Shown piece after piece: positions 1-46,266 of a DNA stretch of 64,000 nt (the stretch's first letter is position 1; every line of letters starts with the position of its first letter). The notes under the pieces were generated by a model that did no database searches, was not told the DNA's origin, and saw nothing but the letters and a program-made list of their open reading frames with translations. The stretch is taken from assembly GCA_051652765.1 (NCBI GenBank), contig JBOFUV010000133.1, positions 1-64,000 of the forward strand. The letters are read 5' to 3'. A program made the translations under genes and the position numbers. This DNA comes from Microcoleaceae cyanobacterium (GTDB taxonomy: Bacteria > Cyanobacteriota > Cyanobacteriia > Cyanobacteriales > Microcoleaceae).

Positions 1-2505
1 GCATCCTTACCGCGTTACCGAATGCAGCCTGAAGGTGAACCGCTCCCCCAACAGCCGTTTTCTCAGATATTGAAATCTCCTCAAGGTCTGTTTCTGATTA
101 CTGAGGATCAGTTAGGTGTGGCTCCTTATGTAGCTACAGCCTTACAACAAGCGGGTGCAACTCCCGTCATTCTCAGCCCAGATATCCTGCTGAATCCTAA
201 ACGCCTTGCCCACGAAGTTGATCAACTGCGTGAAACTTGGGGGCCTGTTACTGGAATTGTCCATCTGGCCGCCCTAGCTCCCCTCTCCCTGCCGAACTCG
301 TTCCCGCAATGGCGAACCTACACCACAATTCAAGCCAAGAGTTTGTTTCAGCTCTTGCATTTATGCAGTCAGGAGCGGAATTCTGCCAAGACTCTCAGTT
401 ATGTTTTGTCTGCCTCTTTGCTAGGGGGGTATTTGGGTCGCCCCAGTGATTCTAGCTCCCCGAATCACAGTCAAGATCTGGCCCAGGGAGGGCTAGCAAC
501 GGGAGGAGCAGCGGTAGGCTTACTCAAAACCTTGAGCTTGGAGCAACCAGAGGTTCAGGTCAAGGCCGTTGACTTTGATCAAACCCTGTCTGGGGAAGCC
601 ATGGCCCAGCATATTGTGCAAGAGTTGTTCTTACCTGGAGGGCGGATTGAGGTGGGTTACCCTCAGGGCGATCGCACCGTTTTCAGAACTGTGTCTGCAC
701 CGATTACACCTGAACCGATTACGCCTGAGACGACTGTAACCCTCTCTCCAGAACCGGACTGGGTGGTTCTAGTCACAGGGGGCGCAAAAGGAATTACCGC
801 AGAAACGGTCTTAACTCTGGCAACCGTTGGACTCACCCTGGTGATTGTAGGCCGTTCCGCCTGCCCGGAGGAGGACGCGATTCAAACCCAGGGAATTGAA
901 GATATTGCCGCGTTAAGGCGAGTTTTGTTAGACCGGGCCAAGGCTCAAGGGGTGTTGCCAACTCCGGTACAAGTCGAGGGACAGATCAAACAGATTTTGG
1001 GCGATCGCGCCATCCGGGCCAACCTCAAGCGCTTTCAACAGGCCGGAGCAACGGTGGAATACCTTCCGGGAGATGTCAAAAATCCAATTGAGTTTCAGCA
1101 CTTAGTGAACGATATTTACAGCCGTTATGGTCGGCTGGATGCGGTGATTCATGGCGCAGGCATCATTGAAGATAAGCTGATTCAGGATAAAACCTTGGAT
1201 TCTTTTGAGCGAGTCTTCGATACCAAAGTAGACAGTACCTTTATCCTGAGTCAATGTCTGCGCCCAGAGTCTTTGAAACTGCTCGTTTTGTTTAGTTCTG
1301 TGGCCGGACGTTATGGTAACAAAGGTCAAAGTGACTACGCAGCCGCCAACGAAGTAGTTAATCGCTTGGCATGGCAACTGGATCAACGTTGGCCTCAAAC
1401 CCGAGTGGTAGCGATCAATTGGGGCCCTTGGGATACCACTGGCATGGCCTCTGAAGACGTAAAACGTCAATTCCGGGAACAGGGAGTGATTCCGATTCCG
1501 TTGGACTCAGGCTGTGAATTCTTCTTGGAAGAACTGCTATGGGGGCAGAAAGGGGACGTGGAAATGATCGCGGGAATGGGCCCTTGGGATGCCCATGAAC
1601 AAAAAATGGCTCACTGTCCTAGCGTTGCCACCCTTGCCTTCCTCGGCAAAACCGCTCCCCAACTTCAGCCGGATGGAACAGTTACCCTGGATCACACCTT
1701 TTCCCTGGGGCACGATCCCTACTTAGCGGATCACTGCTTGGACGGACAGCCTGTTGTTCCTGCTGCTGTGGCGTTGGAATGGTTGGCGGAATTTATCCAG
1801 GCCGCTTGGCCAGAGTGGGAATTGGCCCAGATCCAGAATTTGCGAGTGCTACGGGGCTTAGTGTTACCTCAGGCTGAGGGATGTTCGGTGCGGCTCCAAG
1901 CCAAGGCTTCGACCCATGCCGATGCAGAGAGCTTAACGGTCACCGCTGAAATCCTTGACCCAGTACGGCGTACTCTTTACTACCGGGCAACGGCCCGATT
2001 ACAGCCCCAACTGCATCCCTCACCTCCCTTGCTCGACCTGAACCCAATTGGTGGACAGTCTCTCCCGCCAGAGGAAGCATATCGCAACTATTTATTTCAT
2101 GGCAAACGCTTTCAGTTGATCACGGCGATCGCAGGCTGTGAGGCCGAAGGGATAGATGCCCAAGTCCAGCCCAGTTATCCGACGACCTGGTTAACCGATC
2201 AAACCCCTGGAGGTTACTGGCTATTCGATCCCGGCATGATTGACACGGCCCCCCAATTGGCAATTATTTGGGCGCGAATGCAGCGTGATACCACTGTGTT
2301 GCCTGCTCGGTTTGGCTGTGTCACCCGTTACGCGGCTTCCCGTTCCCCTCAACCGCTCCAGGTGGCACTTCGAGTCACCCAGGCGAATGAGTACAGTCTC
2401 AGCTACGATGCTTTGTTCTTTGATGCTCATGGAAATATCCATTTCCAACTTCAGGATATGGAAGGCACTTGCAACTCCCAACTCAACCGTTTAGCGCAGG
2501 TTTAG
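1..2505 (+). CDS. Type I PKS/PUFA-synthase-like protein, C-terminal KR + DH domains (5' truncated by window edge)
   Basis: Frame is open from base 1 (ASLPRYRMQ...). KR motifs VLVTGGAKGITAE, HGAGIIEDK and FSSVAGRYGNKGQSDYAAAN. DH motifs DHCLDGQPVVP and DPGMIDTAPQ. Confidence 0.92.
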   Translation, partial: ASLPRYRMQPEGEPLPQQPFSQILKSPQGLFLITEDQLGVAPYVATALQQAGATPVILSPDILLNPKRLAHEVDQLRETWGPVTGIVHLAALAPLSLPNSFPQWRTYTTIQAKSLFQLLHLCSQERNSAKTLSYVLSASLLGGYLGRPSDSSSPNHSQDLAQGGLATGGAAVGLLKTLSLEQPEVQVKAVDFDQTLSGEAMAQHIVQELFLPGGRIEVGYPQGDRTVFRTVSAPITPEPITPETTVTLSPEPDWVVLVTGGAKGITAETVLTLATVGLTLVIVGRSACPEEDAIQTQGIEDIAALRRVLLDRAKAQGVLPTPVQVEGQIKQILGDRAIRANLKRFQQAGATVEYLPGDVKNPIEFQHLVNDIYSRYGRLDAVIHGAGIIEDKLIQDKTLDSFERVFDTKVDSTFILSQCLRPESLKLLVLFSSVAGRYGNKGQSDYAAANEVVNRLAWQLDQRWPQTRVVAINWGPWDTTGMASEDVKRQFREQGVIPIPLDSGCEFFLEELLWGQKGDVEMIAGMGPWDAHEQKMAHCPSVATLAFLGKTAPQLQPDGTVTLDHTFSLGHDPYLADHCLDGQPVVPAAVALEWLAEFIQAAWPEWELAQIQNLRVLRGLVLPQAEGCSVRLQAKASTHADAESLTVTAEILDPVRRTLYYRATARLQPQLHPSPPLLDLNPIGGQSLPPEEAYRNYLFHGKRFQLITAIAGCEAEGIDAQVQPSYPTTWLTDQTPGGYWLFDPGMIDTAPQLAIIWARMQRDTTVLPARFGCVTRYAASRSPQPLQVALRVTQANEYSLSYDALFFDAHGNIHFQLQDMEGTCNSQLNRLAQV
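668..675. repeat. HIP1 octamer GCGATCGC (one example of many across the window)
   Basis: Recurs in core genes and in the PKS cluster, often as ggcgatcgcc. Confidence 0.95.
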
Positions 2506-2512
2506 TGAAATC

Positions 2513-5500
2513 ATGACAAATCCTCAACTGAAATCCACGGATATTGCGATTATTGGCATGTCGGCTCTTTTTCCTGGAGCCCCGGACTTAAAGACCTACT
2601 GGCAGAACATTGTCAATGGTACCAGTGCCATTCGAGAGGCCCCAGAAGACTGGCTTGGCCCTTATTTTGACCCTGACTCTACTGAAAATGACCGGATTTA
2701 CAACCGCAAAGGAGGGTTTATCGGGGATTTAGCAGAATTCAATCCTTTGGAGTTTGGCATCATGCCAAACTCCGTGGATGGAGGTGAGCCTGTTCATTTT
2801 CTGGCCCTGAAATTAGCACGAGCGGCCCTAGCCGATGCAGGATATTTGGATCGACCGTTCAATCGGGACAAAACCGGAGTGATTCTGGGACGGGGCACCT
2901 ATGTGAACCGAGCCTATAACTCTCTGATGCAGCATGGATTGGTGATTGATCAAACCCTGGACTTAATTCGTCAGCTTTTGCCTCAGTTAACCAAGTCTAC
3001 CGTCCAGCAAATTCGTCAGAACCTGAAGCAAAGCTTGCCACCTTTTACCGCAGAGATGGCTCCAGGCTTGTCTCCCAATGTGTTAACGGGTCGGATCGCC
3101 AACCGATTTGACCTCAAAGGGCCAAATTATATTGTTGATGCTGCCTGTGCCTCAACCTTAATTGCGGTAGAGCTGGCCATTACAGAATTGCAGAGTGGTC
3201 GCTGTGACCTGGTATTAACGGGAGGCACACAAGCCTCAACTCCACCGCAAATTCACATGATTTTCTGCCAACTGGGGGCCCTGTCGCGGTCTGATATCAA
3301 GCCATTTGCCCAGGGATCGGTAGGAACGCTGTTGTCAGAAGGGCTAGGACTGTTAGTTCTGAAGCGGTTGGCCGATGCCGAACGGGATGGCGATCGCATC
3401 TATGCTGTGATTAAAGGGGTGGGTACCTCCAGCGACGGAAAAGCTTTGGGATTGTTAGCTCCTCGACCTGAAGGAGAGGTCTTAGCTCTGCAACGAGCCT
3501 ACGCGAATAGTGGAGTTGACCCCCAGACAATCAGTTTAATTGAAGCCCACGGCACGGGAATTCCGCTGGGCGATCGCACAGAAATTCAATCCTTAACCCA
3601 AGTCTTTGGGGCTCGACAGCATTTCCCTCGCTGTGCCTTGGGTTCTGTGAAATCAATGATTGGCCATTGCTTGCCTGCGGCTGGGGCTGCCAGTTTAATC
3701 AAAATGGCCCTTGCTCTCTATCACAAAGTTCTGCCCCCAACTTTGTGTGATCAGGTTAATCCAGATTTGGAAATTGAACAAACTCCCTTTTATATCAACA
3801 CGGAAACACGACCCTGGATTCAAGGGGATGGGCTGCGGCGGGCTGGAGTCAATTCCTTTGGGTTTGGTGGGGTAAATGGTCATGCCGTTTTAGAAGAATA
3901 TCAGCCGTCAACCCGTTCTTTATCCTCTACTGCGCTCCACACGCAATGGCCGACGGAATTGGTGGTGTTAACTGCAGATGATCCAAGCACTCTGATTGTT
4001 AAAATTCAACAGTTGCACCAGCAGATAGAGACCCAACTCGTCGAGGCAGCATCCCAGTTTTCCCTGGCTTCCCTTGCCTATATCCTGAACTCTCAACCCC
4101 TTCAAGGCCGAGAACGTCTGGCCATTGTGGCGGAGGATTTACCCGACTTACAGCAAAAATTAACTCAAACCTTGAGCAAATTGCGATCGCAACCCCAAAC
4201 CCTGCAAACTCGTAATGGGATTTACTATGCTGCTGGGGGAGATTTGGCTGAACCGGAGCGGTTGGCCTTGCTGTTTCCGGGAGAAGGATCGCAATATCCG
4301 AATATGCTGGCGGATTTGTGTTTGTATTTTCCAGTGGTGCGCTCCTGGTTTGACTTTCTGGATCAAACGTTTGGAGCCCAGCGAGAGATTCCCCCGAGCC
4401 ATTTCATTTTTCCCCCTCCCACTAGCTTAACTGCGGAAGAGCAGCGGATAGCTCAAGCTCAACTCTTCAATATGGACTTGGCTTCAGAAACGGTGTTTAC
4501 CGCTAATTTAGCCCTGTACGAACTTCTTAAGCAGTTGGGTCTAAAAGCAGCCGTCATGGTGGGGCATAGCACGGGAGAAAATTCTGCCTTGATTGCTTCA
4601 GGAACCGTGCGCTTGAGTAGCCGCGAACAACTAGGAAAGAATATGCGTCACCTCAACCGTATCTATCAGGGGTTAGTTGCGGAGGATCGAATTCCAAAAG
4701 GGGTGTTACTGAATGTGGGTGCGGTGGATCAGGAGGTTCTCCACAGAGTAATTGCTCAATTTCAAGGTCAGTTGCACTTAGCGATGAACAATTGTCGCAA
4801 CCAAGCAATTCTTTTTGGCGATGAGGCAGTGGTTGTTCAAGCCCAAGCCCAACTTCAGCAATTGGGGGGGATTTGCACACGGCTTCCGTTTGATCGAGCC
4901 TATCATACCTCTCGATTTGAACCAATCAGTACTGCATTCAAAGCCTTCTATGATCACCTAGACGTAGGCCCTGGGCAGACTTCCTTGTATAGCTGTGCAA
5001 CAGCGGATCAGTTCCCGACTGAGCCGGAAGCAATTCGGGAGTTGGCGGCGCAACAGTGGTCTCGCCAGGTTCGCTTTTGGGACACGATGGAGACGTGCTA
5101 CCAACGGGGGATTCGCACCTTTGTCGAAGTTGGGCCGAGTCGGAATCTCACTGGATTTGTTCGAGATGTTTTCCGCGATCGCAACCATCTTGCCCTCGCC
5201 AGTAATGTCCAACGTCAATCTGGCTTAACCCAATTGCACCATCTATTAGGCCATTTGTGGGTTCAGGGAAGTCCCCTCAACCTGGACTATCTCTACAGTG
5301 TGCGGGAATTGCAACCTGCTAACTTAGCAACCCCAATTGTTCCGCCAAAACCGAAGATGTTGCTGGATTTGAAGATGCCAATTCTTCGTCTAGATCCGGA
5401 GTTGGTTCAGGAGATTCAAGGGCAGTTGCAAAAGTTCCCATCGGTTCTTCCAGAAATAGGTCTTCCAGAAATAAGTCTTCCAAAAATAGGTCTTTCCGGA

Positions 5501-7576
5501 TCTGATCAGACCGACCCGCATGATGCTCCTGAACAGCCCTCGATAGTTCTTCAACACCCGGTAAGTGTGACTGAAGATACGGTGGAATGGGTAGTTGCTC
5601 CAGAGCAGGTGCAAGCTTCTAGCAGCAATTCAGAAATTGCCAGGGGCATCATAGAACCAGATAATTCCAGACCAATGGCTCCAGTTTTAATCCCGCCTCC
5701 GGTTCAGCTAGAACCTGTCGCTTCTACAATTCCGCTACCTCCTCAACTACCGTCTCAACAGCCTGAGTTTTCGCTGCTATGCTCTCATTTTGATTTGATG
5801 AAGACCTTTCTGGAGCATCAGCAACGGATTACAGCGGCAGTATTCTCCAACTCACCAGATGTTGCCACAACTCCTTGGCCATTTCTGGGTCAAGTGCAGG
5901 AATGCACAGCCTCACGGTTTTACAGTGAACGGGTCTTTGATTTGCAGTCTGATCGGTTTTTGCAAGACCATACCTTGGGTGGCCAACTCTCAAACTGGAA
6001 CCCGGAGATCTGTCCCTTGGCGGTGATTCCCTTCACGATCAGTTTGGAGATTCTGGCAGAAGCGGCGGTTTACTTAACGGCCTGTGCGTTTCGAGTGACT
6101 GCGATTGAGGCCGTGCGAGGGTATCGCTGGATTACGTTAGACCAAGGACAGGTGCGGCTTGGTATTGAAGCTGAGCTGCAGTCTGATCCCGCTGCTTCTA
6201 GTCCTCAGGTTCAGGTGAAGTTGTTCCAGCTTGAACCGGATCAGCAGGCAGACCCGATCCTGGTGTTTGAAGGGCGGGTAATTTTGGCGACTGACTATCC
6301 GCCGCCGCCTGCTCCCTCAATTGCACCACTTACTCATCTTCGGCCTTCCCGCTGGTTAGATGGGGAGTTGTACACTTCAGGAATGTTTCATGGCCCTAGT
6401 TTTCAGGGGGTGAAACACTTGTGCGGATGGAATGGTCAAGGAATTGAGGCAGAATTGAGGCAAATTCCCACTGATCCCTTTTTCCAATCTCTACCTCGGC
6501 CACAGTTTCAACTGGATGCGGGGTTACTGGATGCAGCGGGGCAGTTGGTGGCGTATTGGATTTCGGAACAGTCAAATATGGATTTCCATGCGTTTCCGTT
6601 TCGAGTCCAGGCTTTTCGGTTCTACGCCGACGTGTTGCCTGCTGAAGCAATCGTGGGCTGTCGGGGGCAGATTGGATTCGCACATGAACGCCAAGTCGAT
6701 GCTCAGTTAGAACTCCGGGATTCAACAGGAGCTATCATCACTCGAATTGAGGGATGGCAGGATGTGTTTTTTACGGTTCCTCAACGGTTTTGTGAGTGCC
6801 GAGTTTTTCCGCAGACGGCATTTCTGTCTCGCCCCTGGAAACCCTTGACTACCTTAACTGACAGGGTGATCAGTCGCCGAGTTGATCCCTTTCCTCAAGG
6901 GTTTTTACAGGACTCAGGCGGGTTATTACAGCGGGCGCTGGCCCATTTAGTATTAAGCGCTGAAGAACGGGATGTTTGGTACAGCTTGCCGGAAGGCAGC
7001 TCTCGCCGGTTAGATTGGTTGCTTGGCAGAATTGCTGCCAAGGATGGAATTCGTCAGTGGGCTCAGGAACAGTTTCAGTTGGCCCTAGCTCCAGTAGACA
7101 TTACGATTCTTTCCTCGGCAACAGGAAAGCCTCAGGTTTCCTGCCCAATGTTGCAAGCCTTTACATCCCTCCCTGATTTGTCCATCAGCCACAGTCAAGG
7201 TTGGGCCGTAGCAGCGATCGCCCCGGTGGGTCAGCAGATTGGAGTAGATGTCCAACCATTTCAGGGGGTCAAGGCTGACGATATTATCCCTATAGCCTTT
7301 TCAGGGGCAGAATGGCAACGCTTGCCAGATCTCACCGGTCAAGAGATTATCGGGCTGTGGTGTGCCAAAGAAGCAGCCAGTAAGGCAATGGGAGTGGGTC
7401 TTCATCAGCCCCACGATTGGCAGATTACCCACTATTCCAGGGAAACTAGTGAAGTGGCGCTGCGATATGGCGATCGCCAGTTGCTGATTCAAGTGGAGCT
7501 AACCCCAGAGGAGGCGATCGCCATCTGCCAAATTGTTCCTCAAGGAATTGGGATCTCATCACTAGAGATCAACTGA
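2513..7576 (+). CDS. Type I PKS: KS-AT-linker-DH-PPTase, no internal ACP seen
   Basis: KS DAACAS, EAHGTG, KSMIGH. AT GHSTG and RAYHT. DH FLQDHTLGG and LLDAAGQ. C-terminal Sfp-type PPTase motifs GRIAAK, SISHS, IGVDVQ, WCAKEAASKA. Confidence 0.92.
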   Translation: MTNPQLKSTDIAIIGMSALFPGAPDLKTYWQNIVNGTSAIREAPEDWLGPYFDPDSTENDRIYNRKGGFIGDLAEFNPLEFGIMPNSVDGGEPVHFLALKLARAALADAGYLDRPFNRDKTGVILGRGTYVNRAYNSLMQHGLVIDQTLDLIRQLLPQLTKSTVQQIRQNLKQSLPPFTAEMAPGLSPNVLTGRIANRFDLKGPNYIVDAACASTLIAVELAITELQSGRCDLVLTGGTQASTPPQIHMIFCQLGALSRSDIKPFAQGSVGTLLSEGLGLLVLKRLADAERDGDRIYAVIKGVGTSSDGKALGLLAPRPEGEVLALQRAYANSGVDPQTISLIEAHGTGIPLGDRTEIQSLTQVFGARQHFPRCALGSVKSMIGHCLPAAGAASLIKMALALYHKVLPPTLCDQVNPDLEIEQTPFYINTETRPWIQGDGLRRAGVNSFGFGGVNGHAVLEEYQPSTRSLSSTALHTQWPTELVVLTADDPSTLIVKIQQLHQQIETQLVEAASQFSLASLAYILNSQPLQGRERLAIVAEDLPDLQQKLTQTLSKLRSQPQTLQTRNGIYYAAGGDLAEPERLALLFPGEGSQYPNMLADLCLYFPVVRSWFDFLDQTFGAQREIPPSHFIFPPPTSLTAEEQRIAQAQLFNMDLASETVFTANLALYELLKQLGLKAAVMVGHSTGENSALIASGTVRLSSREQLGKNMRHLNRIYQGLVAEDRIPKGVLLNVGAVDQEVLHRVIAQFQGQLHLAMNNCRNQAILFGDEAVVVQAQAQLQQLGGICTRLPFDRAYHTSRFEPISTAFKAFYDHLDVGPGQTSLYSCATADQFPTEPEAIRELAAQQWSRQVRFWDTMETCYQRGIRTFVEVGPSRNLTGFVRDVFRDRNHLALASNVQRQSGLTQLHHLLGHLWVQGSPLNLDYLYSVRELQPANLATPIVPPKPKMLLDLKMPILRLDPELVQEIQGQLQKFPSVLPEIGLPEISLPKIGLSGSDQTDPHDAPEQPSIVLQHPVSVTEDTVEWVVAPEQVQASSSNSEIARGIIEPDNSRPMAPVLIPPPVQLEPVASTIPLPPQLPSQQPEFSLLCSHFDLMKTFLEHQQRITAAVFSNSPDVATTPWPFLGQVQECTASRFYSERVFDLQSDRFLQDHTLGGQLSNWNPEICPLAVIPFTISLEILAEAAVYLTACAFRVTAIEAVRGYRWITLDQGQVRLGIEAELQSDPAASSPQVQVKLFQLEPDQQADPILVFEGRVILATDYPPPPAPSIAPLTHLRPSRWLDGELYTSGMFHGPSFQGVKHLCGWNGQGIEAELRQIPTDPFFQSLPRPQFQLDAGLLDAAGQLVAYWISEQSNMDFHAFPFRVQAFRFYADVLPAEAIVGCRGQIGFAHERQVDAQLELRDSTGAIITRIEGWQDVFFTVPQRFCECRVFPQTAFLSRPWKPLTTLTDRVISRRVDPFPQGFLQDSGGLLQRALAHLVLSAEERDVWYSLPEGSSRRLDWLLGRIAAKDGIRQWAQEQFQLALAPVDITILSSATGKPQVSCPMLQAFTSLPDLSISHSQGWAVAAIAPVGQQIGVDVQPFQGVKADDIIPIAFSGAEWQRLPDLTGQEIIGLWCAKEAASKAMGVGLHQPHDWQITHYSRETSEVALRYGDRQLLIQVELTPEEAIAICQIVPQGIGISSLEIN

Positions 7577-7645
7577 TTAAGCATCTACCATCATTAATTT
7601 CCTAGCCCTGTTAATTCATCGTTCACCTGTTTAAAGTTCAATCCT

Positions 7646-7990
7646 ATGAACACATCGATTCAGTCTGCTCTAATTAGTGTCAGTCGGCAGCTCCGTAAGT
7701 TAGAAATTCAGGTTGCTGTTGTCAATCTTATTCGTTCTCTGTTGCAAGAGTGGCGGATGGAATTTAACGATATTAACCCGAAAAGTCGATTGACATCCGA
7801 TTTGAATTTTGAATCCATTGAGATTATTAATTTGGTTGTTGCTTTGGAGAAAAAATATCGCAAGACCTTAGATTACTCCCGACTCCTTATGCAGGATGGT
7901 CACTATGTTGAAGACATTAGCATTGAGCAGCTTGCCAATTTTGTTGGGGAAAGTTTTCCTGAAGATCAAGATGAATGTTCTACGAGTTGA
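7646..7990 (+). CDS. Stand-alone acyl carrier protein
   Basis: SRLTSDLNFESIEIINLVVALEKKY matches the ACP helix II pattern with the Ser attachment site (ES in place of DS); directly follows the PKS. Confidence 0.8.
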   Translation: MNTSIQSALISVSRQLRKLEIQVAVVNLIRSLLQEWRMEFNDINPKSRLTSDLNFESIEIINLVVALEKKYRKTLDYSRLLMQDGHYVEDISIEQLANFVGESFPEDQDECSTS

Positions 7991-8274
7991 TGAGTCATTT
8001 ATCTAGGTAAGTTTTGCCTGTAAACTTACCCGTGAATTTATCCGTAAATGTATCAACAAATTTGTCAGCAAAGTTGTCGGTAAAGGTGTTGATACGTTTG
8101 TTCGTCGAATAATATGGCAATCCTTTATTAATTATAAAAACCTGAAAAGAGGTTTGGGGATTTTGTTCTAAGAAAGAGCAACTTCTCTTTACCCCTTTTC
8201 CAAAAATTATTCCTGATTCCTATAGCTTGACTTTGCATAATGATATGAAGTGAGCCCTAATAATCCTTTGAGAA

Positions 8275-8307
8275 TGTTGGGTCTCGCTAGCTCGATACCA
8301 ACCTACA
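8275..8307. repeat. REP-like small dispersed repeat copy (family A)
   Basis: Reverse complement tgtaggttggtatcgagctagcgagacccaaca resembles tgtagggtaagtcgagcttgtgaaacccaaca at 30289-30320. Confidence 0.55.
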
Positions 8308-8351
8308 CAGCCTACATTTTTAAGCGACATGCACCAGTGGGGGGACTCAAA

Positions 8352-11204
8352 ATGTACCAAACTGCTCAAAATCGGCTGCGGCAAGACTTGACAATTGTTA
8401 AAAGTGCAATTCTTAAAAATGCTAGATATCATTACCTCATCAAACTACCGGAGTCGGAAGATTTTTTTGAGTTAGGAGAAGAAGACTATTATCTCTGCTG
8501 GTTAATGAATGGAGAATTGACTGACGCGGAAATTTGTAATCGATTTTGCGAAAGGTTTGGGCGAGTGATTACGACCCGTAACTTTAAATCATTTTCCCAA
8601 AGAATTGATGCGTTAGGATTGTTAGAGCCTTATCATCATGCATTTTCAGTCTTGGAAGAACCCGAGCCAAATTTATTACTAGATCCTCCTCATAATATCT
8701 CTGAAATTGAGCCTGAAATTGAGCCTGAAATTGAATTAGAGTTTACTCATAGTTATGACATCCCTGAATCCAAAAGTTACAATCCAATCAAGGTTAATCC
8801 TCCATATCACTGGGCGTTATTCAATCCCAATTTTGGGCTAAGAGGTCTAGCTACTTTATGTCATCCTTTGCGTCACTTGACTTACGGGATTATTCCCTTG
8901 TTAGGATTGGCAATTCTGACTATCCTCAATAATCAGCCTCTTTTTTGGCAAGACTTAACAACTGAAATTACCCCTATTCCTTTACTCAGTAAGCTCGGGT
9001 TTAACCTGCTCAGCATTAACATCTTAGGAAAGGTCGCTTATGGCGTAGTCTACACATATTATGGGGGCCGTAGTTCAACAGCAGGAATCCAGTTCATATT
9101 TGGATTTTTTCCCTTATTTTATCTCCAAACCTCGAATTTATGGCAATTCCGCCGCCAGCAGCTCCTTTGGATTTTTGCGACTCCACTACTATTCCGAATA
9201 TTTGCTTTTTCAGGGACAACTTTACTATGGTTTTGGTTGCGATTGACTCAACCTCAACTGTCCATCTTTTTTCTCATGTTATCTCAGATTTCACTCCTTA
9301 GTTTTGCCCTTCACGTTAACCCTATTTGGAAATCTCATGGCCATCTTTGGTTATCAACTTATTTGCGATCGCCGCAATTGTTAGAGCAGGCTCATCTGCT
9401 CATTAATCTGAGGATAAAGCGTCGTCCAATGCCTTTAAATTTGTCTCCTCATAAAATATTGGCGCTGCAAATTTATGGTGTAGTTGTGATCTTGTCTTGG
9501 ATCTTACTGCTGATCGCAATAGTTTTGGGAGGCATGATACTCACAGATTACTATCAAGGAATTGGATTTTTGATCTCAGTCACAGCAGTTATTCTTACAA
9601 TTAAATGGTGGCTCACAATGAATGGAAAATCTTCGTCTGGTGCTCATTCTAATTCAAAATCTAATTCAAGAATGATTCGAGAATTAAATTCAAGAATGAT
9701 TCAAGAGTTGTCAACTGTTGCACATCCTGCTAATGCTAATGGCTCAATTGCTTTAAATCATCCTCCCCGAATCGTCACCTTTTTAAGCACAACTCTTAAA
9801 ATTGGAGCTGTGATTGGGGTTGGAATTTTACTATGTTTACCTTATCGCTACCGTCCTGGCGGTGGAATTGAATTATTGACTCATCAGCAAAAAGAAATTC
9901 AGGTGGATATTTCTGGCCGAATTGCACAAGTTAAATTTGATGGTGGGGATGGGGCATGGATTAATGCAGGAACTACTATTGCTGAAATTGAACCGTCTAG
10001 CCAGGTTCATTATCAAACACCAACTGAAAATGATCTCTTGATCAAACGAGAACAAATTAATCGCCAAAGAGCTGAAATTGAGAAAGTCAAAGCGAATCTT
10101 AATCGTCTATTGTCTACACCTCGCCAGGAAGAAGTTGATGTTTCTCAGCGAAAAATAGAAGTAGAACAGCAAGAGTTAGCCTCAGTTCAAAGTCAGCTTG
10201 CTGTAGCTCGGGAAGAACTCAATTTAGCCCAGCGGCAAGTTGCAGTTCAAACGGAGGAATTGGCAGCAGTTCAAAGTCGAGTGGAGACCGTTCAAGAAGA
10301 GGTTAAAGTTGCCCAAAAAGATTTAGAAGCTGCCCAGATTAGATTAGAATTTCAAAGCCGAGAGGCCAATCGTTTACAGGTTTTATATCAAGAAGGAGCA
10401 ATTCCCTTGCAGGATCTTGAAGATGCTCAACGGCTAACGGAACTTGCTCAAGCAGAAGTAGATCGAGAAAAAAGTAATATTCAAAGTAAGCTCAAGCAAG
10501 TTGATGAACGGCAGCATGAAGTCCAGGTGCAACGGAATAATATTGAAGAAGAAAAACAAAATATTTTGGTTAAACAAAAGCAAGTTGAAGAACGTCAAAA
10601 TAACGTTCAGGCTCAACAAAAAAATATAGAAGTTAAACGAGCTGATTTGAGTCTAATTATGAGTGGCTCTCATCCAGATGAAATTGCTGCGGCTCGTAAA
10701 GATGTCGAAGCTGCTCAACTGCAATTGAAGCAATTAGAACAAGATATCACCTACACTCAAACTCAACTGGAGCGCCGAACTTTAGTGATGCCCTTTGATG
10801 GTCGTTTAACTACGCCTTATTTAACTCAAAAAGTGGGGAGTTACTTAGACCAAGGTCAAGTATTTGCGATCGCAGAAGATGATCGAAAAATTCGTGGAGA
10901 AATCGAAATTCCAGAGTCTGACATTGGAGAATTTTCTGTGGGTGCTCCCGTTGAGATTAAGTTATCGTCTTATCCAAACCAGGTGATTACGGGAGAGATA
11001 GTTTCTATTGAACCAAACGCAACAGAAAGTTCTAGCGGGCAGTTTATTAAAGCGATTGTTGAAATCCCCAACACTGAACAGATGCTCAAGCCAGGAATGA
11101 CAGGTCATGCCAAAATTTCAGGTGGAGTTAAACCAGTTATGTTCTCTTTTACTCGTCCTTTAGTGCGCTTCTTTCAAATTGAAGTGTGGTCTTGGATTCC
11201 TTAA
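8352..11204 (+). CDS. Fusion protein: PqqD/RRE-like N-terminus + degenerate M50-like multi-TM domain + HlyD-family membrane fusion protein
   Basis: ATG at 8352 follows ggggga and is preferred to GTG 8250. N-terminal RLRQDL...FFELGEEDYYL...GLLE pattern, several hydrophobic helices, long Q/E/K coiled coil, lipoyl-like halves (ISGRIAQV; MPFDGRL) and C-terminal LKPGMTGHAKI. Confidence 0.8.
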   Translation: MYQTAQNRLRQDLTIVKSAILKNARYHYLIKLPESEDFFELGEEDYYLCWLMNGELTDAEICNRFCERFGRVITTRNFKSFSQRIDALGLLEPYHHAFSVLEEPEPNLLLDPPHNISEIEPEIEPEIELEFTHSYDIPESKSYNPIKVNPPYHWALFNPNFGLRGLATLCHPLRHLTYGIIPLLGLAILTILNNQPLFWQDLTTEITPIPLLSKLGFNLLSINILGKVAYGVVYTYYGGRSSTAGIQFIFGFFPLFYLQTSNLWQFRRQQLLWIFATPLLFRIFAFSGTTLLWFWLRLTQPQLSIFFLMLSQISLLSFALHVNPIWKSHGHLWLSTYLRSPQLLEQAHLLINLRIKRRPMPLNLSPHKILALQIYGVVVILSWILLLIAIVLGGMILTDYYQGIGFLISVTAVILTIKWWLTMNGKSSSGAHSNSKSNSRMIRELNSRMIQELSTVAHPANANGSIALNHPPRIVTFLSTTLKIGAVIGVGILLCLPYRYRPGGGIELLTHQQKEIQVDISGRIAQVKFDGGDGAWINAGTTIAEIEPSSQVHYQTPTENDLLIKREQINRQRAEIEKVKANLNRLLSTPRQEEVDVSQRKIEVEQQELASVQSQLAVAREELNLAQRQVAVQTEELAAVQSRVETVQEEVKVAQKDLEAAQIRLEFQSREANRLQVLYQEGAIPLQDLEDAQRLTELAQAEVDREKSNIQSKLKQVDERQHEVQVQRNNIEEEKQNILVKQKQVEERQNNVQAQQKNIEVKRADLSLIMSGSHPDEIAAARKDVEAAQLQLKQLEQDITYTQTQLERRTLVMPFDGRLTTPYLTQKVGSYLDQGQVFAIAEDDRKIRGEIEIPESDIGEFSVGAPVEIKLSSYPNQVITGEIVSIEPNATESSSGQFIKAIVEIPNTEQMLKPGMTGHAKISGGVKPVMFSFTRPLVRFFQIEVWSWIP

Positions 11205-11251
11205 GTTATTTCTCATCAAGTTCATAGGATTTTTAGTTTGGAGAAACAGCA

Positions 11252-11617
11252 ATGCTCGATTTTCAATGTTCAACAATGCCCTTAGAATTTGAAGAACATT
11301 TAAGGCTGAGAAACTATCAAGAAACTTGGATTCAAGCCCTATTTGAAGAGACAAAGTTTGAGCTAGAACAGTTATCTAGGATTCCAGAGATGACTCTCAT
11401 ACCAGAAGAGCCGTGGGAAATTCCTCAGGGTTCATTTCTAGAATTTTTAGATAGCATGTCCCAAGAAACTATAGAATCTCAAAAAGAGCGTAAGACGCTG
11501 GCTGAATTACAAGAACGTTATCAAAAGTTACTCTATCATCGTGTTTGGTTGAATCGCTTATTACAGCAAGTTCATCGTGATGTAAAAGCCGCAACACTTG
11601 TGACCAGTAGTGCATGA
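11252..11617 (+). CDS. Hypothetical helical/coiled-coil protein
   Basis: 121-aa ORF co-oriented within the cluster, ggaga upstream; no family recognised. Confidence 0.55.
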   Translation: MLDFQCSTMPLEFEEHLRLRNYQETWIQALFEETKFELEQLSRIPEMTLIPEEPWEIPQGSFLEFLDSMSQETIESQKERKTLAELQERYQKLLYHRVWLNRLLQQVHRDVKAATLVTSSA

Positions 11618-11680
11618 TCGATTCGGGTTCATCCTAATCATTAATAGTGTCCATTCTGATCATTTTTACTGATAATTTCA

Positions 11681-12823
11681 ATGCGTCTTTACCCAAGGCC
11701 CCGACCGCAAATCAATTATCTTTTCCAACTATTTCTGTTTTCAGCATTTCTACTCTTCCCAACGTTAACTGCTTGCTCGATCACTTTCTCTAACCTCATG
11801 TCTCATCCATTTCTCTCAACACCTGTACGTTCTATGAGTTCAACATTAGTGTCTCCTCAGTTAAACTACCAACCGACACTGGGGCCCTATGGAGTCAAGA
11901 CGGTTGATCATCTGGTTTTGCCCGGTCGCAGCGGTCGTACCCTACCCCTGAGACTCTACTACCCTGAAGGATCAGGAAAATTTCCGGTGATTGTGTTCTC
12001 CCATGGCTTGGGAGCTTCAAAAGCAGGATATTCTCTTTTGAGTCAATTCTGGGCTAGTTATGGCTATGTTTGTATTCATCCAACCCATGCCGATGCCTTA
12101 GTTCTCCAAGGCAAGGCCCCAACACCGGAGAATTTGCAGGCTCTCGTGCGAACCATGCTCCAGGATGTCGAAGGCTGGCAACAGCGGGTGCAAGATGTGG
12201 TGTCCATTCTGGATGCCTTGGAGGAGCTAGAACACCAACTGCCGCAATTTCAGGGTCAATTTGATCTGCAAAACATTGGGGTCGGTGGTCACTCCTATGG
12301 GGCTTACACAACTCAATTGTTAGGGGGAGCTAGGATTGACTTGCCGGGTGAGCAACCGGGCAAAAGCTTTGCTGATCCTCGGATACAGGCTACTTTGCTC
12401 TTGTCTCCCCAAGGATCGGGGCAACAGGGTTTGACGGCGACCTCCTGGGAACAGCAGAAATTGCCCATGATGGTCATGACCGGGTCTCGGGATCAAGGCG
12501 CTCAAGGACAGGGCCCAGACTGGAAACAGGAAGCATTCAAGCTTTCCCCGCCGGGAGATAAATATCTGGTGTGGATCGAAGGGGCACACCATTTTTCCTT
12601 TAGTGCGCCCCTGTCAGAACCCTCCCGTAGGGGCAACCTGGGACGAGCCCCCAGGGAGTTAGAGACTGCCCCCCAACAGCAGGCGATCGCAGCCTATATT
12701 CAAATCTCCAGTTTGGCCTTTTGGGATACTTATTTAAAGCACAATCCAGACTCTAAAGCCTACCTTCAGAGCGATGCGTTAGAGAAGTACAGTCATTCTG
12801 CTGTTTCCATCTCGACAAAGTAA
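11681..12823 (+). CDS. Alpha/beta hydrolase (chlorophyllase/PAF-acetylhydrolase-like), probable lipoprotein
   Basis: FSHGLG oxyanion loop, GGHSYG nucleophile elbow, TGSRD, GAHHFSF; signal peptide ending in lipobox LTAC. Confidence 0.85.
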   Translation: MRLYPRPRPQINYLFQLFLFSAFLLFPTLTACSITFSNLMSHPFLSTPVRSMSSTLVSPQLNYQPTLGPYGVKTVDHLVLPGRSGRTLPLRLYYPEGSGKFPVIVFSHGLGASKAGYSLLSQFWASYGYVCIHPTHADALVLQGKAPTPENLQALVRTMLQDVEGWQQRVQDVVSILDALEELEHQLPQFQGQFDLQNIGVGGHSYGAYTTQLLGGARIDLPGEQPGKSFADPRIQATLLLSPQGSGQQGLTATSWEQQKLPMMVMTGSRDQGAQGQGPDWKQEAFKLSPPGDKYLVWIEGAHHFSFSAPLSEPSRRGNLGRAPRELETAPQQQAIAAYIQISSLAFWDTYLKHNPDSKAYLQSDALEKYSHSAVSISTK

Positions 12824-12841
12824 ATCCTGAGTAAATCCTGA

Positions 12842-14338
12842 GTGTCAAACCGATTGATTAAACCCCTCGTAAAGATGCTGACCCAACCTGGACTCCACCG
12901 TGCCAATTTTCGCAAAATTTGTATCAATGGGTTTGGAGATGGGAACAATGCCTATGCCCACTCCATGGCCTGGTTCAAAGATCATTTGTATGTCGGGACA
13001 ACTCGGGCCAACCTTTGCCTGCTGCGCCATTCCATGAAAAAAATCACCATCGATACCTGGCCCGTGGAATGCCCTTACCCAGTTTACTCTTCAGAGTTTG
13101 AGCAGATCCAAGCCCGCGCCGAAATCTGGCGCTATAGTCTAGTGTTGGACAGTTGGGAACGGGTCTTTCAAGCTCCAATGGTGTTTGGCAATACGGGGGA
13201 AGAGATGAGTCGAGATCTTGGGTATCGCGGCATGGTCGTCTTCCAGGGAAAATCCGATCCGGAACCGGCCCTCTATATTAGCACCTGGTCAAGGTCTCGC
13301 GGAGATGGCCCTTTAATTCTGCGGTCTGAAGACGGCAAAACTTTTGATACGGTCTCTAAACCTGGATTAGTCGGTCTTCCAGTCACAAGCTTCCGAACCT
13401 TAGTTCCGTTTAAGGGACGCTTGTTTACCGCACCCAGTGGTGCAGCTAAAGGCAATCCCAACACGGCGGGGGTGACGATGATTTACGAAAGTGATGATCC
13501 AGCCCAGGGCCAGTGGCGACCAATCAACGAACCCAACTTCGGTGACCCTGACAACTCGACTGTCTTTGAAATGAAGGGGTTTGGGGATTATCTCTATGCA
13601 GGCACCTTTAACATTCAGGGATTTCAAATTTGGCGAACTCGGGCCGAAGGTTCCCTGCCCTATCATTGGGAACGGGTGATGGATCGAGGGGGCGATCGCG
13701 GCTGCCTCAATCAAATCGCCACCAGCATGATGGTGTTTAACGATGCCCTCTACGTGGGCAGCGGCATTCAAAATGGCGGCTATGATCGCTTGAATCAGAT
13801 TGGGCCAGCCGGAGTCGAAATTCTGCGGATTCAGGCCGACGGGAGTTGGGATGTGATCATGGGGAACATCCGCCCCAATGGAAAACGTCCAATCAGTGGT
13901 TATCCGCCTGGATTTGGGAATTTGTGTAACGGCTATCTATGGCGGATGGGCGTTCATGAGGGTTGGTTGTATGCCGCCACCATGGACTGGAGTATTTTTC
14001 TGCGCTATGTCAATCTAGCGAACAAGCCCCCTCGAACAATGCGGCTGTTGCAACGGGTAGGTTTAGAAACGATTATGCACAATCAAGCCGGATTTGAGTT
14101 GTGGCGTACAGCCGATGGAGAAAATTGGGTTCCTGTAGATTGTCGAGGGTTTGGGAATCCCTACAACTATGGGGTTCGCAACATCATTTCTACCCCCCAT
14201 GGAGTGTTTTTAGGAACCACCAATCCCTTCGGCCCCAAGGTTGCTGTTCCGCAGGGAGAAGCTTGGCACTATGTTGATAATCCTCAAGGGGGATTGGAGG
14301 TTTGGTTGGGATCAACGAACGTTAACCCAGAACGTTAA
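12842..14338 (+). CDS. Putative beta-propeller protein of unknown function
   Basis: About seven repeats of the form GFG..N.Y...M..F...LY.GT; start is GTG 12842 or ATG 12875. Confidence 0.75.
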   Translation: MSNRLIKPLVKMLTQPGLHRANFRKICINGFGDGNNAYAHSMAWFKDHLYVGTTRANLCLLRHSMKKITIDTWPVECPYPVYSSEFEQIQARAEIWRYSLVLDSWERVFQAPMVFGNTGEEMSRDLGYRGMVVFQGKSDPEPALYISTWSRSRGDGPLILRSEDGKTFDTVSKPGLVGLPVTSFRTLVPFKGRLFTAPSGAAKGNPNTAGVTMIYESDDPAQGQWRPINEPNFGDPDNSTVFEMKGFGDYLYAGTFNIQGFQIWRTRAEGSLPYHWERVMDRGGDRGCLNQIATSMMVFNDALYVGSGIQNGGYDRLNQIGPAGVEILRIQADGSWDVIMGNIRPNGKRPISGYPPGFGNLCNGYLWRMGVHEGWLYAATMDWSIFLRYVNLANKPPRTMRLLQRVGLETIMHNQAGFELWRTADGENWVPVDCRGFGNPYNYGVRNIISTPHGVFLGTTNPFGPKVAVPQGEAWHYVDNPQGGLEVWLGSTNVNPER

Positions 14339-14372
14339 CCCCTCGAACGTTAAATCTAGCAGAGGAACTGAG

Positions 14373-15284
14373 ATGAACACTGACTTTGCTCAACCCCTAT
14401 TTATCCTGGCTTCTCCGCGTTCGTTTACCTCTGTGCTGTGTGGCATGTTGGGCCAGCATCCCCAAGCCTACGGGGTAGCAGAATTGAGCATCTTTGCTTC
14501 CGAAACCTTGCAAGAGTTTACGGATCGAATGCAGGGCTTATTTCAATACAATATGCATGGTTTACTTCGAGTGGTGATGCAACTTTATGCTGGGGAACAA
14601 ACGTTAGCTTCTCTTGAAATGGCTCGCCGTTGGGTTGCAACTCGCGGCGATCGCACTACGGGCGAAGTCTATCAAGAACTCTGCCAAAAAGTTGCCTCCA
14701 GACGCATTATTGATAAGAGCCCAATCTATTCGACAAAACGGGAAATCATGAACCGAATTTATCGAAATTTTCCCGATGCTTATTATTTGCATTTGGTTCG
14801 TCATCCCAGAACTCAAGGGCAATCTATGATGAATTTTGCTGACGGGAATCTGACGATTTTTGGAAATTCTGTGGACTATTCCACACATCCCCCAACGGTT
14901 GATCCGCAGTATTGGTGGTATACCATGCAATGCAATATTTTAGATTTTCTAGATACAGTTCCCTCAGAACAACAAATGCGCTTAAAAGGGGAAGATCTCT
15001 TGAGTGATCCAAAATCTTACTTTGAAAAAATTTGTGGTTGGTTGAATTTGGACTGGAATGATGAAGCGTTTGCAGCCATGTTAAATCCTCAGGACTCTCC
15101 CTATGCCTGTTTTGGCCCCTATGGTTCCCATGCTGGAAATGACCCAAACTTTATGCAGTCCGCTAAATTTAAGCAACGAGAGATTCCATCCAGTCAATTA
15201 GCAGGAGATTTACCCTGGCGTTCTGATGGGAAAGGTTTCATTCCAGATGTGATTCAACTCGCACAAACCTTGGGATATGAGTGA
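14373..15284 (+). CDS. PAPS-dependent sulfotransferase (resembles CurM/OLS ST domain)
   Basis: ATG after agagga. 5'-PSB loop LFILASPRSFTS, IIDKSP, 3'-PB HLVRHPR, GEDLL, DPNF, LGYE end. Confidence 0.9.
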   Translation: MNTDFAQPLFILASPRSFTSVLCGMLGQHPQAYGVAELSIFASETLQEFTDRMQGLFQYNMHGLLRVVMQLYAGEQTLASLEMARRWVATRGDRTTGEVYQELCQKVASRRIIDKSPIYSTKREIMNRIYRNFPDAYYLHLVRHPRTQGQSMMNFADGNLTIFGNSVDYSTHPPTVDPQYWWYTMQCNILDFLDTVPSEQQMRLKGEDLLSDPKSYFEKICGWLNLDWNDEAFAAMLNPQDSPYACFGPYGSHAGNDPNFMQSAKFKQREIPSSQLAGDLPWRSDGKGFIPDVIQLAQTLGYE

Positions 15285-15364
15285 TTGTTTGACAAGCTTT
15301 GACCTGAAACAATTATCCACAGTAATCATTCAAAGTAATCATTCAATTAGAGGGACATTGAATC

Positions 15365-16501
15365 ATGAAAAAGCACTATAGAATTCACATCTACCGTAAT
15401 ATTTCTAGTCTGTTATGCCTGATCCTAACTCCGGCATTGGCTCTGGCTTGTACTGCCAACGTTGTCAGTCATGAGTCTTCAGGTTTATCAAGGTCAACTT
15501 CCCTCCCAGCTTCCTCCAAGGTTGCCCTCAGTGCTCAAGATTGCACAACGATGATTCCCCCCATTCCAAGCGGCTATGGCTCTTTTGGCCCCTATACAGC
15601 CACGCAAACAACATTTGAGAGTCCCCTCTGGAAACTCAATCAAGTTCATGTTTATTTTCCCCAAGAAGCCACTGCTCCAGTTCCCGTGGTCTTTTTTGCC
15701 CATGCCTATGGAGCCATTTATCCTAAGTTTTATGGTGCCCTGATTCAACATATTGTCAGCCAGGGATATGCCGTGGTCTTTTCTCCCTATCAAGGACGCG
15801 GTGCTGATCACAGCACTCGTTATCAAATGTTGTGGGCTGGGTTTGAAGCGGCGGTTCAAAAATACCCAGATCGTTTAGACCTGAATCGAGTGGGGTTTAT
15901 GGGCCATTCCTATGGGGGAGGCGCAGTCCCAGCAATGGCCTATCGGGCCTTAGTTGAACGGGGGTGGGGAACCCAGGGGTCATTTTTGTTCATTATGGCT
16001 CCCTACTACTCTTTTGAAATTCAACCAGAACAGCTTCAGCGCCTCCCGGCTCAAACCAAACTGTTGATGCAGGTCTATGAAGAAGAGCAGATTAATGATC
16101 ATCGGATTGCGATCGCCCTGTTTAATCAGTTCAACCTCGCGGCTTCAGAGAAAGACTATGTTGTGGTTCGTTCGGATCAGAATGCAGACTGCACGTTAAT
16201 AGCCAATCACGAAACACCTGCCAGTTCTGGCTTGTGGACTACTCTTGAAGTCAACGGCCTAGATTACTATGGGGTCTATCGGCTGTTTGACGCATTGGCT
16301 GACTATACGTTCCAGGGTAGTCCAGGCGGAAAAGCCGTTGCTCTGGGCGACGGGAGCGATCAACAAACCTACATGGGAACATGGCCAAATGGGGTTGAAG
16401 TGAAGCGACTCATTGTTAATCCTACACCGCAACCCTTGCGAGAATCGGGTTCTTATCGATATCCCCAAACGAATCGCCCAGGAACGTTTACCGGAGAATA
16501 A
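15365..16501 (+). CDS. Alpha/beta hydrolase, probably exported/lipid-anchored
   Basis: FFAHAYG, GFMGHSYGGG, candidate catalytic His in ANHETP; basic N-terminus and hydrophobic stretch ending ALAC. Confidence 0.85.
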   Translation: MKKHYRIHIYRNISSLLCLILTPALALACTANVVSHESSGLSRSTSLPASSKVALSAQDCTTMIPPIPSGYGSFGPYTATQTTFESPLWKLNQVHVYFPQEATAPVPVVFFAHAYGAIYPKFYGALIQHIVSQGYAVVFSPYQGRGADHSTRYQMLWAGFEAAVQKYPDRLDLNRVGFMGHSYGGGAVPAMAYRALVERGWGTQGSFLFIMAPYYSFEIQPEQLQRLPAQTKLLMQVYEEEQINDHRIAIALFNQFNLAASEKDYVVVRSDQNADCTLIANHETPASSGLWTTLEVNGLDYYGVYRLFDALADYTFQGSPGGKAVALGDGSDQQTYMGTWPNGVEVKRLIVNPTPQPLRESGSYRYPQTNRPGTFTGE

Positions 16502-16523
16502 TCCATTACGTTGAACCATCACC

Positions 16524-17441
16524 ATGAACTTCAAACCCCAAGTTAAACGGTTAGAAACGACTAATGCTGAACGAATCCGGCTCAGTTATGCCCTCTCAAA
16601 AGTGAGGCAGTTTGATCAGGCATTGAGTGAGCTGAACATCGTCTTGGATCACAATCCTCGTTCAGTCTATGCTCATCTCGCCATTGGCAATATTTGTTAT
16701 CTGCAAAGACGATATGGTGAAGCCTTTCATCACTTTCAAACGCTGACTCACTTGAATCCTCTGATGAGTGAAGGATACTTAAAGCTGGGGCAAGTTTGTT
16801 TACGGTTGGAGTGTTTAGAAGATGCCCTGGAGTATTTTGATACCGTCCTCAATTTGGATGCTCAATCCCCTCAAGCCTATCTCAGTCGCGGTCAAGTGAT
16901 GATGCGCCGAGAAGAATATGACTGCGCGATCGCCCATTTTCAGCAGGCTCTCAACTTAAATTCAGATGTGTTTTTGGCTCACTTATTACTGGGAGAGATT
17001 TATCGTAAGCAAAAGCATTTCCCTCAAGCTCTGAGAGAATTTCAAGCTGTTCTGGAGGTTCAACCCCAACTGATGATGGCCTACATTCGCTTGGGGCGAC
17101 TTTATCTCGATATGCAACATCCAGTTCAGGCAAAAGCTACTTTTGAGTATGCTTTACAGTTAAATCCTCACTCGATTTATGCCTATTTGGGTCTGGCTGA
17201 TGCGCTCATTCAATTAAATCAGTTAGAAGCGGCGGATGAATTACTGCAAAAACTACCGCACTTTAACAAACCTACCCTGAATCAACTCAACCGGAATCAA
17301 CCGAGTATCCCTGAGCCAACCTTCTTGGTTTCTCCTGACAGCTCTTGTCCTGAAGTTCCCTTTGATGAAACAGGCAATCTAGAGCAAATTTGGTACACAG
17401 AAGCTCTAGCTGGCCAAGAACGCTACTTGAACCTGGAATAA
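16524..17441 (+). CDS. Tetratricopeptide repeat protein
   Basis: Six to seven 34-aa repeats (AHLAIGNI...LNP, AYLSRGQV, AYIRLGRL, AYLGLADA). Confidence 0.9.
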   Translation: MNFKPQVKRLETTNAERIRLSYALSKVRQFDQALSELNIVLDHNPRSVYAHLAIGNICYLQRRYGEAFHHFQTLTHLNPLMSEGYLKLGQVCLRLECLEDALEYFDTVLNLDAQSPQAYLSRGQVMMRREEYDCAIAHFQQALNLNSDVFLAHLLLGEIYRKQKHFPQALREFQAVLEVQPQLMMAYIRLGRLYLDMQHPVQAKATFEYALQLNPHSIYAYLGLADALIQLNQLEAADELLQKLPHFNKPTLNQLNRNQPSIPEPTFLVSPDSSCPEVPFDETGNLEQIWYTEALAGQERYLNLE

Positions 17442-42889: not shown

Positions 42890-42903
42890 TTCTGTAGGTT
42901 GTC

Positions 42904-46128: not shown

Positions 46129-46266
46129 CGAGGGTTTGACCGATTTAACTTTTGATTTGGGCTTGATGACCGAACCCTTGCTTGAGGGCAAGGTCACCTT
46201 GCTTTTATAAAAAATATAAGGTTGTCAACCAGACTGAATATGACTCAGCAGTTAAGGAGGAGTTGA

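Follow-up and report, generated by a model that had tools for sequence, protein, structure and literature searches.

The window analysed here, a stretch of 64,000 nucleotides (nt) from a Microcoleaceae cyanobacterium (GenBank assembly GCA_051652765.1, contig JBOFUV010000133.1, positions 1 to 64,000, forward strand), begins inside a megasynthase gene of the polyketide synthase (PKS) type. Judging from the sequence, this gene, PKS1, is probably decoded by programmed -1 ribosomal frameshifting (we put the probability at about 0.8), which would give two subunits of 2155 and 2994 amino acids (aa). The putative signal lies between the acyl carrier protein (ACP) and ketoreductase (KR) domains, just upstream of window base 1, and recurs in related loci.

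Putative frameshift signal between the ACP and KR domains

Bases 1..139 of the window (+ strand) are an exact and unique overlap with the end of another contig of the same genome, C1 (minus strand). Support for the join comes from two same-genus genomes that have no synthase, in both of which the flanking genes of the C1 side and of the window side lie within ~0.5 kb of each other; the cluster is thus part of an island of ~30 kb. On C1, the zero-frame open reading frame (ORF) of PKS1 (6618..151) encodes 2155 aa with a tandem FabK/NMO-like enoylreductase (ER), a ketosynthase (KS), an acyltransferase (AT), a helix, and two ACPs. The stop of this frame lies 11 nt ahead of the first window base. 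The KR and dehydratase (DH) domains (KR-DH; 1..2505, + strand) occupy its -1 frame, which is open for 842 codons past the shift. The first-pass annotation of the window had placed the ER and ACPs beyond its 5′ edge, where they were found, but had taken KR-DH for the tail of an in-frame PKS, which it is not.

A slippery heptamer, G_GGA_AAG, lies at C1 169..163, 30-24 nt before window base 1. It falls within the overlap of the two frames, directly after the second ACP and three codons ahead of the zero-frame stop, in the phase required for tandem tRNA slippage. A Shine-Dalgarno (SD)-like GGAG ends 13 nt upstream of the heptamer (pairing -6.4 kcal/mol). A hairpin with an 8-bp lower stem and a 3-bp upper stem starts 7 nt after it; the 5′ arm, 16-9 nt before base 1, contains the zero-frame stop, and the 3′ side is formed by window bases 1..11 (+ strand). 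This hairpin has a minimum free energy of -20.6 kcal/mol and, relative to 100 dinucleotide shuffles, a z of -4.7. The only tRNA-Lys found in the assembly is tRNA-Lys(UUU), and a sole tRNA-Lys(UUU) favours slippage on AAG. Passages of two papers on frameshifting (PMC4066793, PMC5009743) place G_GG.A_AA.G and C_CC.U_UU.U in the most shift-prone classes for E. coli.

In the mechanism we propose, a ribosome reaching G_GGA_AAG after the second ACP would be held there by pairing of the SD-like site with 16S rRNA and by the downstream hairpin. Ribosomes remaining in frame would terminate three codons on and release ER-KS-AT-ACP-ACP, the predicted unshifted product of 2155 aa. Ribosomes slipping back by one base would read on through KR-DH to the predicted shifted product of 2994 aa.

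Conservation of the heptamer was scored in 80 loci. Besides the present one, these were 5 that came from genome searches and 74 detected when species-representative genomes were scanned. Eleven further rows of the 91 collected were left out (6 without upstream ACP sequence, 1 duplicate, and 4 distant paralogs). G_GGA_AAG was present in the ACP-KR linker of 16 of the 80 loci, with 0.04 expected, and elsewhere in the same genes Gly-Lys was coded as the heptamer only once in 102 cases. All 12 loci with a -1 break carry it. Sixty-four loci are fused in frame, as are most non-cyanobacterial orthologs. SD-like pairing was found upstream of 16 of 17 G_GGA_AAG sites, versus 10% of control windows.

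An order-level sample, an even set of 400 genomes, gave 17 matches besides the own genome, one of which was dropped. G_GGA_AAG was present at the junction in 16/16 scorable cyanobacterial orthologs of this sample, 7 of which repeat loci already counted. Nine of these genes are split, so that a shift would lead to the long protein, and seven are fused in frame. In each of the seven fused ones, a stop (TGA, TAA or TAG) ends the -1 frame one codon past the heptamer, against a background of ~9%. This finding suggests that the arrangement has flipped while the same two products were kept. A tree built by a quick method from 87 rows, omitting 2 loci with a broken KR frame, showed at least three changes of polarity on well-supported branches. 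The fused genes at L005 / L193 and L196 carry a tandem pair of G_GGA_AAG 24 nt apart, and a -1 shift at either copy leads to a stop.

A second heptamer, C_CCT_TTT, was found in the ACP-KR linker of 16 of the 80 loci (0.18 expected), whereas Pro-Phe elsewhere was coded in this way in 0 of 122 cases. Its carriers are Alpha- and Gammaproteobacteria, Actinomycetota, Thermomicrobia, and one planctomycete. An immediate -1 stop follows in 16/16 (TGA in 15, TAA in 1; TAG occurs in one metagenome locus). SD-like pairing was present upstream of all 16 sites versus 15% of control windows, and a hairpin with z < -1.5 follows 13 of them. This hairpin shows paired changes at three stem positions and has loops of 4-27 nt. 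Its arms were misaligned in MAFFT junction alignments, as the loops differ; the pairs were counted by script on the anchor. In the linker of L071, only T_TTT is present, together with a -1 stop and the hairpin seen in the C_CCT_TTT group; this is what one would expect of a tetramer shift site.

Metagenomes were scanned with an alignment as query; a single-protein query had found no relative. Of the 80 loci obtained, 68 were scorable and 12 were dropped, and the organisms partly overlap those of the main set. G_GGA_AAG was present in 4 of the 68 and C_CCT_TTT in 11, and one locus (L172) has C_CCT_TTC in the flipped polarity.

Runs of seven or more A were observed at the junction in 6 of the 80 loci. 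Two distant cyanobacterial HglE/PfaA-like paralogs (L008, L010) also have A-runs at the ACP/KR junction; one is split by -1 and the other is fused with a near -1 stop. On a plasmid of Beijerinckia indica (L200), the ArsA-type coding sequence 5053-13077 contains A_AAA_AAA at codon ~2120, right after the last ACP, with an SD-like site, a hairpin of -19 kcal/mol, and, 10 codons farther, a stop in the -1 frame. The frameshift signal may therefore extend to this characterised phenolic-lipid family.

Alternative readings of the split gene

The most serious competitor of frameshifting is a pair of separate, translationally coupled genes, in which KR-DH would start at its own ATG (base 22) and dock in trans. 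Hundreds of stand-alone KR-DH proteins of ~820 aa are present in databases, a separate KR-DH gene is real in five related loci, and in 6 of the 12 split loci an ATG in the KR frame shares bases with the zero-frame stop (TGATG or TAATG). In the present locus, however, 32 nt separate the stop from the ATG downstream and contain no SD, and 3 of the 12 split loci have no start codon at that position. Start at the first Met (residue 8, base 22) would also truncate the first β-strand of the KR (residues 5-12). An R-[YF] motif ahead of this Met is conserved in the KR frame in 16/16 loci, and its residues form the first KR strand in an AlphaFold model of KR-DH with a predicted local distance difference test score (pLDDT) of 88.5. 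Alignments to solved PKS KR domains begin at residue 1, as given by the end points of the aligned ranges. The truly separate KR-DH genes have an extra N-terminal helix that is missing from the split loci. Finally, coupling leaves the heptamer, the SD-like site, and the -1 stop of the fused genes unexplained. We consider it quite improbable.

Recoding could be real but proceed through RNA polymerase slippage. The A-runs seen at the junction of six loci, of both distant paralogs, and of the ArsA-type gene from Beijerinckia would suit this mechanism. However, neither G_GGA_AAG nor C_CCT_TTT contains a long homopolymer, and the phase, SD-like site and hairpin are ribosomal features; polymerase slippage is accordingly given a very small chance.

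An assembly error or gene decay, in which a one-base indel split a fused PKS in this genome, can practically be dismissed: the junction lies 24-30 nt from a contig end and most non-cyanobacterial orthologs are fused, but the same -1 break with the same heptamer recurs in 15 other genomes of several families, and every catalytic residue downstream is intact (KR GGxxGI and Tyr446, DH His577 and Asp748).

Several observations count against programmed ribosomal frameshifting. Besides the overlap of stop and ATG in half of the split loci, most cyanobacterial sites have a weak hairpin (a strong one, z < -1.5, follows 4 of 17 G_GGA_AAG sites), and in this assembly the heptamer adjoins a contig break. 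No heptamer was found in 42 of the 80 orthologs, among which are the whole Nevskiales clade (11 rows) and a cyanobacterial locus, L020; evidently, these synthases can in some cases do without two forms. Owing to the relatedness of the loci, the expected counts of 0.04 and 0.18 do not represent independent tests. The covarying changes in the C_CCT_TTT stem reflect few lineages, and the stem registers were picked to maximise pairing. With these points taken into account, we still regard it as very probable that the -1 shift occurs in vivo and that both forms are kept by selection.

Synthase pair, its relatives and known frameshift systems

PKS2 (2513..7576, + strand; 1687 aa) consists of KS, AT, a helix, DH, and a phosphopantetheinyl transferase (PPTase). 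Together, the synthase pair contains KS, ACP and KR as well as AT, DH, ER and PPTase, and the active-site motifs of KS, AT, KR, DH and ACP are intact across both genes. The KS of PKS2 retains Cys209 and is therefore not a chain-length factor (CLF). The domain architecture fits the iterative PfaA-type synthase with a self-priming PPTase that had been proposed for the cluster. Three classes were rejected. A heterocyst-glycolipid synthase or one for polyunsaturated fatty acids (PUFAs) is excluded by the absence of a CLF. A canonical PUFA synthase (Pfa types A/B) does not agree with an active Cys in both KS, Pfam matches to PKS-type DH, and the fusion of ER and PPTase. The enediyne PKSE is a single KS-AT-ACP-KR-DH-PPTase chain without ER; here an ER is present and the PPTase sits on the second gene.

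The cluster is a new member of a catalogued family of secondary lipid synthases. The first-pass annotation had called it orphan, in the sense of unseen; its two-gene layout has in fact been catalogued (Shulse & Allen 2011; JACS Au 2026) and is homologous to an ArsA/ArsD-type pair. As in the present cluster, these synthases have an ER fused ahead of KS-AT-ACP-KR and a second gene with KS, AT, DH and PPTase, and their distribution across phyla is patchy. Passages of Shulse & Allen (PMC3098273) describe related types (the M-P group) with unknown product, and "split pfaA" in types D and H. The sections of the JACS Au paper (PMC13291983) that concern fused pfaDA with pfaBC-PPTase call this an uncharacterised synthase like that of Renibacterium salmoninarum. 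CF-3 of Calteau et al. 2014, as described in parts of PMC4247773, is probably the same family. Among the types of Shulse & Allen, M-O come closest to the present cluster; fused orthologs with 47-48% identity are present in Gloeobacter and tentatively point to type O / CF-3. The PPTase of PKS2 has LSISH, which fits the hShxH motif of types M, N, O, P, R, S and T.

The closest characterised relatives are ArsA and ArsD (type P; Azotobacter, Beijerinckia). The Beijerinckia pair shows 46% (ER), 44% (KS-AT) and 41% (KR) identity to the respective parts of PKS1, and its ArsD-type DH-PPTase is 29-36% identical to the end of PKS2. The ars cluster contains the type III PKS genes arsB and arsC, whereas a search of the ORFs of the present cluster found no type III PKS among them. 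The present cluster in turn differs from ars in having a second KS-AT, extra ACPs, two sulfotransferases (STs), and an HlyD fusion.

In five related loci (L032, L116, L130, L158, L173), the short form and KR-DH are truly separate genes. The separate KR-DH proteins of these loci start with a copy of the helix that follows the AT in PKS1 and PKS2, and this helix is a candidate docking element. These loci suggest that the short form is functional and that the subunits meet via the helix. In the recoded synthases, the subunits may be joined through the same helix, which occurs in both PKS1 and PKS2 and, in some relatives, in the stand-alone KR-DH proteins. We give about even odds to a working role of the short form as a subunit, in which it would set the ratio of condensing and carrier domains to reducing domains, or would expose a C-terminal ACP for hand-off.

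Ribosomal frameshifting of the -1 type is known for few chromosomal bacterial genes. In the bacterial systems covered in parts of PMC4066793 and PMC5009743 (dnaX, copA, IS911/IS3, phage lambda G-T), an X_XXY_YYZ heptamer with an upstream SD and a downstream hairpin gives a short and a long product. Heptamer, SD-like site, hairpin (at 7 nt, within the 5-8 nt expected) and two predicted products are matched here. The putative system differs from the dnaX type in residing in a lipid/polyketide megasynthase, in having three interchangeable motifs at one junction, and in occurring in both polarities within one family. Frameshifting of the dnaX type in a lipid megasynthase, which we consider very probably real, would be a new case. 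Its new elements would be a ribosomal signal of the classical kind together with its stimulators, a second heptamer unrelated to the first, and the occurrence of both polarities.

Among listings and abstracts, in which subscription journals are mostly uncovered, we found no paper that describes frameshifting for genes of fatty acid or polyketide synthases. The word "frameshift" is absent from the portions of the secondary lipid synthase papers covered here (PMC3098273, PMC13291983). "Polyketide" does not occur in the first 300,000 of the 449,034 characters of PMC5009743. No such synthase appears in the main text or one supplement of PMC3711429, whose supplement file 1, outside the search, may bear on the claim. 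The sections of PMC4558948 covered here contain nothing on the present cluster.

If frameshifting operates as proposed, it would be a translation-level means of setting the domain stoichiometry of a megasynthase in a widespread synthase family. The annotation of hundreds of clusters would change: a stand-alone "SDR" would turn out to be the end of a 3000-aa enzyme, and a hidden short form would also be made from fused genes. The signal would be lost on codon optimisation or when annotated ORFs are cloned, a possible reason for failed expression. Much more tentatively, ACP/KR recoding might be a general design rule of Pfa/Hgl/Ars-type megasynthases, with at least three slippery motifs, free flips of polarity, and a mixed complex of long and KR-less subunits. 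In that case the shift rate would tune chain reduction, length or hand-off (e.g. keto versus hydroxy lipids), and many "split pfaA" as well as many "fused" genes in databases would be misannotated.

Accessory genes, product and flanking region

Ten ORFs, all on the + strand and separated by gaps of 7-259 nt, make up the part of the cluster within the window (1-17441), which agrees with the ten co-oriented, mostly close-set genes first described. Gene neighbours were counted in 84 related loci, or in the 50 loci that span 20 kb or more; for the majority, flanks extended to no more than 10 kb. A stand-alone ACP (7646..7990, + strand; NCBIfam E 5e-6, below the cut-off) follows PKS2 and is found in 23/50 loci. 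It is 36% identical to the ACP of an ACP-sulfotransferase encoded divergently on C1 (7503..8861), which matches the CurM ST, its nearest solved structure, over 285 residues (E 4e-64, PDB). A second, stand-alone sulfotransferase (Sulfotransfer_3) is encoded at 14373..15284 (+ strand); its ORF opens at 14241, the likely ATG is 14373, and its nearest structures are 4gox and CurM ST 4gbm.

A membrane protein (8250..11204, + strand; likely start ATG 8352 by comparison with relatives) combines an M50-like part, which weakly matches the daptide M50-type model (E 9e-7), with a C-terminal HlyD part. We propose this fusion as the export component. An active M50 protease was rejected: HExxH is absent here and in 11 aligned relatives, and K/R-x-A-[QY]-G-like residues are found instead. 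The next ORF (11252..11617, + strand) encodes a 121-aa protein with no assigned function and an ortholog in 2 cyanobacterial loci. It is followed by an alpha/beta hydrolase (11681..12823, + strand; PAF-AH/chlorophyllase-like, with lipobox LTAC and GHSxG) found in 3/84 loci. A 498-aa conserved protein (12842..14338, + strand) has a repeat pattern like that of a beta-propeller. It had no match to a Pfam family and no apparent signal peptide; its single-sequence AlphaFold model has a pLDDT of 33, and Atlas clusters at cosine 0.99 share no Pfam family. Its family is widespread and tracks synthase clusters, sometimes in two copies, and one Atlas cluster is auto-named "putative exo-alpha-sialidase". 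A second alpha/beta hydrolase (15365..16501, + strand; GHSxG, hydrophobic N-terminus) and a TPR protein (16524..17441, + strand), the last gene of the inserted island, complete the series.

Most domains named in the first-pass annotation were borne out (KR/PKS-DH, KS-AT-DH-PPTase, ACP, HlyD, hydrolases, Sulfotransfer_3, TPR); "propeller" is unproven, as is "RRE", for which a Pfam search gave no match. Its grouping of the downstream genes with the synthase held for the sulfotransferases, the propeller-like protein (13/50 loci), the HlyD fusion (9/50) and the TPR protein (7/50), and failed for the second hydrolase (0/84). These four gene types accompany the synthase in other phyla as well. Phosphodiesterase-family, sulfatase-family and adenylyl-sulfate-kinase-like genes are also frequent among the neighbours in relatives.

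As to the product, the FabK-like ER and the absence of a CLF make a long, mostly reduced chain likely, as for ArsA. ArsA itself makes C23-C25 chains, according to passages of PMC4824345. The two CurM-type sulfotransferases and the two similar small ACPs suggest sulfation of a carrier-bound hydroxy-acyl chain. We therefore lean toward a long, mostly reduced hydroxy-acyl chain that would be sulfated on the small ACPs by the CurM-type STs and leave via the membrane/HlyD fusion. Against this reading, sulfotransferases were found in only 11 of the 50 loci. The cluster contains no ABC ATPase, and conservation is lacking for one hydrolase; export and the processing of esters outside the cytoplasm, as envisaged at first, are thus still conjectural.

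Alternatively, the sulfate could be merely activating, as in CurM or olefin synthase, and the product could be a long-chain terminal alkene or another unsulfated lipid. The extended match of the ACP-sulfotransferase to CurM ST is in line with this possibility, and a cytoplasmic alpha/beta hydrolase is present in 25 of the 84 related loci, directly after the ACP-sulfotransferase in two. However, this hydrolase is absent from the present cluster, and no clear ortholog of it was found in the genome. The best 60 of the 283 PDB matches to the relatives' hydrolase do not include the CurM thioesterase (TE). The second sulfotransferase, and the sulfatase-family and adenylyl-sulfate-kinase-like genes of relatives, suggest retained or multiple sulfates. 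The present cluster shares with CurM and olefin synthase a CurM-type ST with an ACP, one ST being fused to it. In contrast to those systems, it has no fused or recognisable CurM TE and no acyl-AMP ligase loading module, and its synthase looks iterative. Both hydrolases of the cluster have signal-like N-termini, and neither is fused to an ST. An unsulfated product appears rather unlikely.

Two similar FHA-domain genes border the island, at window 17549-18046 and at C1 12574-12990 (L001); they are neighbours in both same-genus genomes without the cluster. Inside the island, on the + strand of L001 (C1 8954-12046), lies a gene for a 1030-aa protein that has FG-GAP repeats and, at its C-terminus, RTX calcium-binding repeats, and could be a type I secretion cargo. 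Farther along the window, at 41787-47772, is a co-oriented group of genes which we take to encode two membrane proteins, cytochrome c oxidase subunits II, I and III, and a GMC-type oxidoreductase.

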